This document shows positions 16,429 through 55,607 of a stretch of 64,000 nucleotides of DNA, piece after piece (position 1 is the first letter of the stretch; every line of letters begins with the position of its first letter). Made by a program: the position numbers and the translations under genes. The notes under the pieces are model-generated. The model did no database searches. It was not told where the DNA came from and saw only the letters and a program-made list of their open reading frames with translations. The DNA lies in assembly GCA_951406725.2 (NCBI GenBank), contig OX597825.1, positions 15,562,001 to 15,626,000 of the forward strand, read 5' to 3'. The stretch is from Octopus vulgaris. Lineage: Eukaryota.

Positions 16429-16634
16429 GGTCCCGGGTTGATTCGGGGTTAACCACAGTAAATAAGGTACTCAATACATAGCAGAGTAAAATTAATTTAT
16501 TATATAGAAGGAGCTTCTACAGGACTAGAACTGTTTCATTCAAGAGAAATCTTCAGGAAGCTCAGGAGCTTCCTGAAGATTTCTCTTGAATGAAACAGTT
16601 CTAGTCCTGTAGAAGCTCCTTCTATATAATAAAT
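16426..16634. mobile_element. Short (TA)n-embedded insert ending in a 69-bp-arm fold-back with hammerhead-like core
   Basis: Arms 16495-16563 and 16566-16634 are perfect reverse complements. Each contains CTGAAGA-TTTC tctt GAAT-GAAA-CAGTT. (TA)n on both sides. Confidence 0.75.
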
Positions 16635-16655
16635 ATATATATATATATATATATT

Positions 16656-16839
16656 GGGAGAGTTCACGAACAAAATAACAAAAGACGAATACAGGTGGTC
16701 TATAAAACAAACAGATGTATTAGTATAACGCTCAGGAATAGAAAAAGTCTTTTACGTTTCAAGCCTACGGTCTTCTACAGAAAGGAACACAGAGAAGAAG
16801 AAGGAGAGAAAAAGTTTGTAGTGGCTACCGATCTATCAT
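16656..16839 (-). mobile_element. Non-coding hammerhead-bearing short element, family HH-A, copy 1
   Basis: Aligns with 29427-29611, 39419-39607 and 55292-55480. Minus strand 16749-16784: CTTT-CTGTAGA-A-GACC gtag GCTT-GAAA-CG-TA-AAAG. TA-repeat flanks. Confidence 0.8.
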
Positions 16840-26952: not shown

Positions 26953-27214
26953 ACTTTTTAAGTGTCTTGGTAAAGAGAAACTATGTAGAAGCCGCTTGTT
27001 AAACTAACCCGTTTGTTGTTTGTCAACCTGTCTTCGTCTTTTGTCTTTTTGTAAATTCCAACTATATACTGCATGCTCACGTTGTCGCACCAATTTTATT
27101 CTGTTTCTACCTCCCACACTTCGGACTTACACGTGGATTTTCTGCACCTCTCCTTGTCTACACATGGATTTCACTGGACTCTTGCGTTGATGAGAAATCA
27201 CTCCAATACACCAC

Positions 27215-29259: not shown

Positions 29260-29426
29260 TATTTGATAAGATGAAAACATCGTAACCGGTTTTATCTTAA
29301 ACCACTTGCTGTAACAAAACTATTAAACATTCTCCAAAGTATACTTTTATGCTTTTTTTCCAACTTAATTTATGTCTTTAACCATAATATTTGATTTGTA
29401 TGGAATCTTAACTCCTCCGCTGAAAA

Positions 29427-29611
29427 CTACAAGTCTTTTTTCATTCTCTCTCTGTTTATTTTTCTCTTATTTCTTTCTGTTGAAGAGCGTAGGCTCAAAA
29501 CATAAGAGACTTTTACATGTTTCCCATGCGTCAAACTGATACATTGGCTTTTTTGTTCATACACGTGTCTTCATTTTTTTGTTTCTCTATTTTAGATAGA
29601 GAATTTTATAT
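29427..29611 (+). mobile_element. HH-A family copy 2 (diverged)
   Basis: 29473-29508: CTTT-CTGTTGA-A-GAGC gtag GCTC-aAAA-Ca-TA-AgAG. Confidence 0.7.
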
Positions 29612-34779: not shown

Positions 34780-35035
34780 TTCTCTTGCACTCTGCTGCCT
34801 TAGACTGAACTTTTTCTTCACCCATTCCCTTCAGGTCATTTCAATGTGACCGCGTGTTTATCGTTGGCGATTTTCTTTCTCCGTCTTCCCTTCTTTGGAC
34901 TTTTTCTATATATCTGATGAAGAGCTCCGCTCGAAGCAGAGAATCCTCATCCTTCTGTTTCCTTTCCTGAGCGTCCAATAACACTGCACTTATTCCAACT
35001 CCTCACGTTGTTGTTTTTTCTTGCTTGTTCATTTT
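34780..35035 (+). mobile_element. Short element related to HH-A with canonical CUGAUGA core
   Basis: 34914-34937: CTGATGA-A-GAGC tcc GCTC-GAAgC; the downstream TTCCTGAGCGT..AATA motif is shared with HH-A. Confidence 0.6.
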
Positions 35036-35045
35036 GGGATTGGGG

Positions 35046-35394
35046 CACAGGCTGTTCCGTTGATCGGATCAACTGGAACCCTCGTCGTCGTACCCGACGG
35101 AGTGCCACGAATTTATCCTTTTCATGTGCACTCGATATCATATATCATGCTATTATATCATTCCATGCTATTTGATACACCGTTACTTTTCTTCCTTGAA
35201 CAACCTTATCCCACTGACCCTGCGAACAATTCCATCTTAGTGCAGTTTATATATATAAACTTTGCCTTAAATCCTCTTCTTCTCATGGTTGGTAAAATAA
35301 GTACCAGTTTCGCACCTTCGTCGAGGCAATCGACTTGGTGGACTTATACATGAAAATATGTTGTCTATTGACTTCTATTACACATGCTAGCTGC

Positions 35395-35429
<35 letters not shown>

Positions 35430-36329
35430 CAGGATGTACTTCGACACAGTTTCTATCTACCACATTCCCTCAGAATGTGCCTTGATCGTGCCAGAGCTAT
35501 ATTAAAAACACACTTCCCCAAAGTGACGCGTAGTGTGACTGGACCCAAAATTCCGCGGTCCAAAGTGAGCTTCTTAACCACGCTGCAATTCCTGCGATTA
35601 TACATACACACACATGCATACATACATACAGACAGACAGGCAGAGAGACAAGCAAACAGGCGGATAGACAGGCAAATAGACAGACGACCAGACAAAAGCA
35701 ATGGAGGTATACTGTTGACAATCCTCATTAGGGTGAAACTGTGCCGTCCAGTGTTCTAGCTTGGCAAGAGTTATTTTTGCTACCTTCAGTAATTCCAGTG
35801 CCTTTAGCACAGCGGGTCTATCACAGACGCTATGTCGGGATGGATACCGCAGTAACTGTCCTATGAACTGCGTATATACGTGAAGTATGATCAATAGATA
35901 GCAATATAGAAATTGAACTAAGAGAAAGTGCTGACAGTGCCAGTAGGATAGAGTTGTTCAAGAAAGAAAAGTAACGGCGTATCAAATTTAGAAAATTTTG
36001 AGACCTGTGGCTAGCTTGGGTAATAGAAGTCAATAGACAACATATTTTCATGTATAAGTCCACGAAGTCGATTGCCTCGACGGTAGTGCGCAACTGGTAC
36101 TTATTTTACCAACCCTGAGAAGAAGAGGATTTAAGGCAGAATTTATATATATAAATTGCACTAAGATGAAATTGCTCGCAGGGTCAGTGGCATAAGGTTG
36201 TTCAAGAAAGTAAAGTAGCGGTGTATCAAATAGTAGGATACCGACTGCACATGAGAAGGATAAATTCGTGGCACTGCGTAGGTTACAACGACGAGGGTTC
36301 CAGTTGATCGATCAACGGAACAGCCTGTG
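35046..36329. repeat. Diverged inverted duplication, ~330-350 bp
   Basis: 35046-35398 vs reverse complement of 36003-36329; includes a SINE family C tail plus flank. Confidence 0.9.
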
Positions 36330-39418: not shown

Positions 39419-39421
<3 letters not shown>

Positions 39422-39601
39422 AGAATTCACAAAAAAAAACAAAGGACGAAGACAGGTGGTGTAGGAAACAAACATATGTATTAGTATAACGGTCGGGAAT
39501 CGAAAAATTCTTTTACGTTTCGAGCCTACGCTCTTCCAAAGAAAGGAACAGAGAAAGAAAGAAGGAGAAAAACAAGGAGAGAAAAAATGTGTGTAGTGGC
39601 T

Positions 39602-39607
<6 letters not shown>
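39419..39607 (-). mobile_element. HH-A family copy 3
   Basis: Minus strand 39510-39545: CTTT-CTTTGGA-A-GAGC gtag GCTC-GAAA-CG-TA-AAAG; (TA)n on both sides. Confidence 0.8.
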
Positions 39608-55291: not shown

Positions 55292-55480
55292 AGGGAAAGT
55301 TTACGAAAATAAACAAAAGATGAAAGCAGGTGGAGTACTAACAAACAAATGTATTAGTATAGCGCTCAGGAATAGAAAACGTCTTTTACGTTTCGAACCT
55401 ACGCTCGTCGACAGAAAGATACGCGGAACAAAAAACAAGGAGAGAAAAAATGCGTGTAGGAGCTAACGATCTATCATGGC
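55292..55480 (-). mobile_element. HH-A family copy 4
   Basis: Minus strand 55383-55418: CTTT-CTGTCGA-C-GAGC gtag GTTC-GAAA-CG-TA-AAAG. Confidence 0.8.

Positions 55481-55607
<127 letters not shown>

Follow-up and report, generated by a model that had tools for sequence, protein, structure and literature searches.

A U6 variant of the minimal hammerhead motif in solo pLTRs of a Neptune-type Penelope-like retrotransposon of Octopus vulgaris

The window analyzed here, a 64-kb stretch of the Octopus vulgaris genome (C12:15,562,001-15,626,000), contains four short copies, each with a hammerhead motif, that are the 3' ends (solo pLTRs) of a Neptune-type Penelope-like retrotransposon (PLE) and not a separate SINE or retrozyme, together with one end fragment. 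The genome counts given below cover the 2.8-Gb, 227-contig assembly. The features of the window are the following.

16656..16839, minus strand: solo pLTR (5'-truncated 3' terminus) belonging to the A7 subfamily of a Neptune-type PLE; identity of 89% to the 3' end of L150, an older copy with RT
16749..16784, minus strand: minimal type I hammerhead motif with a CUGUAGA core (U6 at position 16777) and a broken stem II; the cut is predicted to fall between 16753 and 16752
about 26998..27062, plus strand: 3'-terminal fragment of about 65 nt, older subfamily, without hammerhead, followed by TATATA
29417..29596, plus strand: solo pLTR, most diverged U6 subfamily, decayed; 29 relatives at 82-86%, and 74% to the intact unit
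29473..29508, plus strand: hammerhead motif, core CUGUUGA, with G12A and a stem I mismatch, predicted to be dead
39419..39607, minus strand: solo pLTR, G7 subfamily, (TA)n on both sides; 86% to the 3' end of L081, an older copy with RT, and 39 other genomic matches at 88-92%
39510..39545, minus strand: hammerhead motif, core CUUUGGA, with G5U on top of U6, predicted to be dead
55293..55481, minus strand: solo pLTR, C7 subfamily; identity of 91% to the 3' end of L148, an older copy with RT
55383..55418, minus strand: hammerhead motif, core CUGUCGA, better preserved than the other three, with C at 9.1 and a single stem II G-U

A sequence-only reading of the window had placed four copies of a non-coding family of about 185 bp at these positions, and they are there: the 36-nt motif consensus matches the sites at 16749, 29473, 39510 and 55383 with 2, 3, 1 and 2 mismatches, respectively, and has matches in 0 of 100 shuffles. 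The 29473 motif is on the plus strand and the other three are on the minus strand. The reading was also right that U occupies hammerhead position 6 in four of four copies and that position 7 is A, U, G and C across them; position 7 differs because the copies come from different subfamilies, the window holding members of four separate subfamilies with a mutual likeness of 72-81%. The consensus core CTGTNGA proposed for them fits three copies, but the 39419 copy has lost G5 and reads CUUUGGA and not CUGUGGA, and every window copy deviates somewhere from the shared consensus. As for the similar boundaries and TA flanks attributed to the copies, the 3' end (in the hammerhead sense) is sharp but the 5' end is clustered and ragged, and the 39419 copy has (TA)n at both sides but the 29427 copy has no (TA)n run at its 5' side. 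The end fragment reported near 27011-27063 exists and has no hammerhead. The stated lack of a tRNA head and of an ORF agrees with ARAGORN, which gives 0 tRNA genes in the 64-kb window, and with tblastn using the element's protein, which gives 0 matches within it. The copies are spaced 10-16 kb apart, and the window is richer in copies than average, since 39 arbitrary 10-kb stretches gave only three motif-bearing copies and one fragment. A repeat search of the window was dominated by microsatellites, and no hammerhead family was among the best 150 of the 270 rows of its Rfam scan. A perfect 140-bp palindrome with 69-nt arms occupies 16495-16634, and 21 nt separate it from the 16656 copy at the 3' side of the latter. 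One arm matches five further loci at 95-100% identity, with both orientations present in L092 and in L121, so the palindrome forms a young repeat family of its own.

Of 30 relatives of the 39419 copy in the genome, most have one common sharp end that adjoins (TA)n and another end that is variable, and a walk outward from the ragged side leads through a low-complexity 3' UTR to a GIY-YIG domain and then to RT motifs. The 2.05-kb, 5'-truncated copy L038/L081 (L081:6975-9025) has a terminus identical to that of the short copies and holds RT motifs, a zinc-finger-like linker and GIY-YIG. A protein search with the RT part of L081 gave 11,985 candidates; among the best 150 scored, more than 100 share one score and the longest open frame has at least 1,211 aa. 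Examination of 20 stretches around RT matches, selected by long frames or top scores, yielded an element unit of 4,479 nt that is arranged in tandem or partial tandem, units following one another in L131-L132 and in L133-L134, and that carries an intact ORF of 1,076 aa (P0001). P0001 scores 31.9 bits for Pfam RVT_1, above the cutoff of 29.6, and 17.2 bits for GIY-YIG (E 0.0065), below the cutoff of 22.6, although the latter motif is recognizable by eye. By the definitions in PMC8557442, its linker CSRPRCRTC (C-X4-C-X2-C) fits CX2-5CxxC and its IIYCISCSLCNSLYIG supplies the cysteines between GIY and YIG (CCHH finger). Judged by linker and target site alone, the parent element would be a Neptune-type EN+ PLE, with Nematis, which shares a linker, as a possible alternative. 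Near-identical units gave 15 matches in 14 loci at 97.4-99.8% DNA identity across the full 2,861-nt query, and the parent element, which is very abundant, shows signs of recent activity.

The hammerhead is located in the pLTRs formed by tandem or partial-tandem units, and the GUAG-loop motifs of the young loci L131-L145 read CUGUUGA in 24 of 24 cases. Within tandem units, the pLTR 3' boundary is followed by TTATATAT and then by the 5' UTR, the distance from this boundary to the first Met of the ORF being about 620 nt. Young 3' ends have TTATAT next in 82 of 90 cases and close variants in the other eight, and insertion is biased to (TA)n. The separate SINE-like or retrozyme-like family that had been suggested is not borne out, since longer copies continue unbroken into the RT and GIY-YIG ORF: the parent PLE whose search had been proposed was found, and the ragged 5' ends run into its ORF, which the sequence-only reading had itself named as the mark of truncated PLEs. 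Nor is there the tRNA-derived head of a SINE, the 5' part being pLTR sequence found in intact units.

Genome counts support the proposal of a family-wide U6 hammerhead variant. The exact 29-nt pattern has 15,703 matches genome-wide, 15,153 with U6 and 550 with another base, and the reversed control pattern has none. The first 100 of the 550 non-U6 motifs have C in 71, A in 20 and G in 9, a base mix expected from mutational decay. A pattern that leaves loop II and position 4 unconstrained finds 18,892 motifs, with U6 in 94 of the first 100, and two older subfamilies have U6 in 87 of 100 and 91 of 100. U6 departs from the CUGANGA core of the minimal type I hammerhead; the other core positions fit. 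On a tree of 137 rows whose bootstrap had not fully converged, comprising all 91 non-U6 motifs collected and 46 of 159 U6 motifs, A6 and C6 copies are dispersed within the U6 lineage, and a sister lineage of 34 rows, all A6, has a branch value of 100/100. Exact motifs of this sister lineage (L073, L099 and L281-L300 are examples) number 13,228. Among the first 100 of them, 99 have A at position 6, and position 4 is occupied by C in 69, by U in 29 and by A in 2; some of the U4 copies may be products of CpG decay. A decayed copy of the sister lineage, with a 3-nt loop II and a canonical CUGAUGA core, lies in the window at 34901-35008 (+), and at L363 a young U6-family 3' end is joined to a sister-type CCGACGA core, possibly by a template switch. 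Since A6 is the published state of PLE motifs (PMC4209133), U6 is most likely both derived and old in its PLE lineage. Small basal A6 or C6 groups may exist within the U6 lineage. A stepwise history from A6 through C6 to U6 was rejected, the older subfamilies being U6 already and the A6 and C6 copies being scattered on the tree. No report of a natural A6U hammerhead was found in the literature searched; Lünse, Weinberg and Breaker 2017, the subject of which is reportedly PLE hammerhead variants, might contain one.

Clustering of 240 distinct copies gave six U6 consensuses with a mutual likeness of 75-94%, and U6 is fixed in all six. Variable columns number 3 of 36 in the motif and 49 of 114 outside it (Fisher p=9e-5), or 4 of 36 in the motif at the finest clustering (p=5e-4), values that include a bias toward apparent conservation, as many loci were chosen by patterns holding the motif. 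Within the motif, N7 takes all four bases and H17 is either A or U but never G; beyond these there are one or two changes of CpG type, confined to the cluster seeded by a decayed query. C3, G8, A9, G12 and A13 are invariant at k=8 and k=10, and at k=12 there is G12A in the consensus seeded by the decayed query. The features of a minimal type I hammerhead are present (stems I and II, an extra base after A9, G10.1-C11.1 and a palindrome replacing stem III), and stem I has a C-G/G-C swap between the U6 lineage and the sister lineage. As far as column comparison can tell, this is the pattern of a hammerhead under selection; the possibility, raised beforehand, that the U6 form is not under constraint conflicts with the conservation of the motif across subfamilies. 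The constancy of U6 alone is not significant, since 57% of the outside columns do not vary either. Within the U6 lineage, stem II and loop II are as invariant as the core, and conservation of the motif may reflect a role other than cleavage.

A conserved CCYGAGCG...TAATA block lies 30-45 nt downstream of the core in both the U6 and the sister lineages; its GAGCG could pair with the stem II 3' arm as an alternative partner, a pairing predicted strongly in one of three long-context folds. A 50-nt pyrimidine tract lies 5' of the hammerhead in all subfamilies (about 2840-2890 of L143), with a splice-acceptor-like YAG end in A7; an intron between the start motif and the hammerhead was rejected as unsupported, since the loci hold no copy in spliced form and the joint is missing from contigs of four sequencing runs, under four organism labels, that cover this stretch.

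Of 40 consecutive exact motif matches, 34 reach less than 100 nt upstream of the core and six reach 141 to more than 2,499 nt; by eye, 24 of the same 40 copies have their ends no farther than about 30 nt from a common ATCAG/CAGT/TAGT-CGCCAT motif, nine are shorter and seven are longer. A sample chosen without the hammerhead motif, made up of the first 90 among 3,277 exact hits for the terminal 28 nt of young subfamilies (partly overlapping the 40-copy sample), has 37 of its 5' ends at 203-217 nt from the 3' end, 14 of these at 210; three copies start at 218-300 nt and 27 exceed 300 nt. Among the 30 young copies that pass the 203-217 interval, one ends within the next 15 nt (Fisher p=3e-7). These 5' ends were called by local alignment, and a few are placed wrongly (L335 is over-extended and probably belongs in the peak). 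The pile-up falls in a 15-nt interval at the ATCAG/CAGT motif, which we take to be initiator-like, and the family of about 185 bp proposed from the window stands as a recurrent short length class but not as a fixed length, the lengths being ragged at the 5' end. There is no 5'-end peak at the cleavage site (102 nt; bin 96-108), where 0 of 81 copies start; this lack of 5' ends gives no sign of cutting in vivo, and any copy extending across that site came from RNA that was either intact at it or joined again. Among the ten distinct junctions listed for units that keep the 5' UTR, none starts at the initiator-like motif and seven extend far upstream, so long copies require either a second insertion or a template of greater length, by read-through or from a circle. 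At L178, a pLTR preceded by 5'-UTR sequence is an internally shortened tandem.

It is fairly probable that the short copies are 3'-terminal inserts produced by (TA)n priming and copying of uncleaved RNA to the pLTR start, the U6 hammerhead being attenuated. The element's endonuclease would nick a (TA)n target, and the nicked DNA would anneal to the UA-rich stretch right after the pLTR and prime reverse transcription. Copying from the upstream pLTR of a tandem transcript would halt at the RNA 5' end, marked by the ATCAG/CAGT initiator-like motif, and the cDNA end would be joined to the target by AT microhomology, a type of join known for PLEs (PMC3846280); copying from the downstream pLTR would give the long, variably truncated class. 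The predicted U6-A15.1 pair would close the monomer into a rod, so that cleavage would proceed slowly and depend on a dimer, the element's protein or Mn2+. By analogy, the proposal fits PAc (Poseidon, Anolis), in which RT initiation is internal, the hammerhead is protein-assisted and unprocessed RNA is a substrate (PMC11167929), the start of Penelope transcripts within the upstream repeat/pLTR (PMC2377424), and the 181-212-bp pLTRs with initiator-like motifs described in PMC3846280.

The predicted G5-C15.2 pairing of the native U6 form versus A6 is 0.98/0.02, 0.85/0.22, 0.43/0.01, 0.98/0.12 and 0.22/0.0 in five of five subfamilies tested, and the predicted monomer rod (U6-A15.1) is strong in three of the five subfamilies and weak in two, with 0.22 in the G7 subfamily. 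The idea that U4C and A6U stabilize one common rod fails in folding of the native sister sequence. The U6 hammerhead is likely attenuated, with cleavage that is weak or occurs only when assisted. Mutations of the CUGA turn reduce activity (PMC3088659), and a mutational scan in which single changes there left little activity, without rescue (PMC9901934), raises the possibility that U6 is dead and not slow; the natural A6C variant retains activity (PMC3088659, PMC7151607), being slow in Mg2+ and rescued by Mn2+ (PMC7151607). Residual, conditional cleavage by the U6 hammerhead is mildly probable, what is left of that judgment falling to a dead motif kept for another job.

With the same origin of the copies, a catalytically dead U6 motif kept as a protein-bound hairpin or downstream promoter element is possible but doubtful. 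It would agree with the low activity of CUGA-turn mutants (PMC9901934), with PAc insertion in vitro that is unaffected by hammerhead mutants (PMC11167929), with a cut site that has no 5'-end peak, with the tolerance of U4C by the sister lineage in 69 of 100 motifs, and with an invariance of loop II and stem II that exceeds catalytic need. However, the two real consensus changes sit at N7 and H17, which are the positions free in a working hammerhead; C3, G8, A9, G12 and A13 are unpaired in the predicted rod yet invariant at k=8 and k=10 (with one G12A at k=12); and the natural A6C variant is active (PMC3088659, PMC7151607). It is unlikely that U6 marks a working, switchable hammerhead, its rod opened by a dimer or by the element's protein, and that the inserts of about 210 nt are strong-stop-like cDNAs that can be re-mobilized; if this were true, these inserts would map the promoter and serve as ready-made SINE or retrozyme precursors.

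Two other rivals concern the copies themselves. Random 5' truncation, with ends clustered by AT microhomology or an RT pause and no defined RNA 5' end, is quite improbable: 14 of the 37 peak copies do begin at one AT directly after (TA)n, as the microhomology joins of PLEs (PMC3846280) would allow, but the bin richest in AT/TA (61-95 nt, 0.31 per nt) has only 6 ends versus 37 in the peak bin (0.17), and the bin at 261-300 nt (0.15) has 0. An RT pause at an RNA structure may nevertheless contribute to the clustering. The remaining possibility, that the copies of about 210 nt are in part a self-propagating, non-autonomous (SINE-like) class with a start motif, a hammerhead and a restored (TA)n priming site, is very improbable. 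The length class is discrete, and the second-youngest subfamily has 24 of 40 copies in the peak and 2 of 40 long, whereas the youngest has 10 of 39 in the peak and 24 of 39 long; but age-related loss of long copies would yield the same pattern, and the RT-bearing copies L111, L119 and L120 of the second-youngest subfamily group with short copies on the tree. No variant is private to the short copies for the three markers tested, and the window has no tRNA gene. Tandem copies, which the earlier proposal of a retrozyme-like element made worth seeking, are rare: the loci examined have three short same-strand pairs less than 400 nt apart, which would suit such a class, but no longer arrays.

Insertion by (TA)n priming and copying of uncleaved RNA to the pLTR start, the preferred reading, can be set beside known systems. 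Among the min-HHRs of metazoan PLEs (Cervera and de la Peña 2014, PMC4209133), the closest form is the Acropora digitifera Neptune motif. The octopus motifs share with these min-HHRs the short stems I and II, the extra base after A9, the palindromic ACGU for stem III, the pLTR location and the predominance of single dispersed motifs from truncated PLEs, and differ in having U6 versus A6 in the rows of Fig. S3 compared; the search descriptor of that work was built on conserved core boxes. The parent element shares with Neptune EN+ PLEs (Craig et al. 2021, PMC8557442) an RT followed by a C-terminal GIY-YIG and a CX2-5CxxC linker, and with these and the Adineta Penelopes (PMC8557442, PMC3846280) tandem units, microsatellite targeting, pLTRs of about 180-210 bp and an initiator-like motif. 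In Adineta, solo pLTRs are few and are ascribed to recombination or deletion (PMC3846280), whereas in octopus they predominate among the products and resemble insertions whose upstream limit is sharp. As in PAc (Frangieh et al. 2024, PMC11167929), targets are AT-rich, and the RT start would lie 3' of the hammerhead, the template would be uncleaved RNA and the hammerhead would be weak. The start in PAc lies inside the ORF and is not target-homologous (PMC11167929), whereas the octopus boundary is followed by the target-matching TTATATAT; the available part of PMC11167929 gives no core change for the PAc hammerhead. A natural pyrimidine at position 6 is shared with the A6C variant Bcep176 (Perreault 2011, PMC3088659; Naghdi 2020, PMC7151607), but the latter is a single phage motif with C6 that was assayed, whereas U6 is fixed in more than 15,000 copies and is known by sequence alone. 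Non-LTR retrozymes (Cervera 2020, PMC7229834; Li et al. 2026, 10.64898/2026.07.22.740005) are likewise of 150-450 nt with a type I hammerhead and pLTR kinship, but are described there as tandem arrays with no ORF-bearing continuation, whereas the octopus copies are dispersed monomers continuous with an autonomous PLE. The kind of element, solo pLTRs and minimal hammerheads are already known; what is added here is a U6 motif linked to tandem long-ORF units, a 203-217-nt class with a sharp upstream edge, and the absence of cut-site ends.

The U6 lineage offers a natural test of whether PLEs must cut with their hammerhead, a question left open in PMC8557442 and PMC11167929. One genome holds two abundant sister lineages, one with A6U fixed and the other with U4C in 69 of 100, that both keep the catalytic guanines; matched natural variants and a protein are available for a direct test, and the U6 lineage has recent long-frame units. 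Motif searches that demand CUGANGA overlook more than 15,000 motifs in the octopus genome. The sharp 203-217-nt class predicts the position of the promoter and a route to solo pLTRs, perhaps to retrozymes. Inverted motif pairs about 150 bp apart, like the inverted pLTR structures of PLEs, occur at G000:C1:1878302(+)/1878451(-) and G000:C2:168232465(-)/168232620(+). Within the window, 35168-35398 and 36003-36233 form a 231-nt inverted repeat that is 92% complementary, with 604 nt between its arms.
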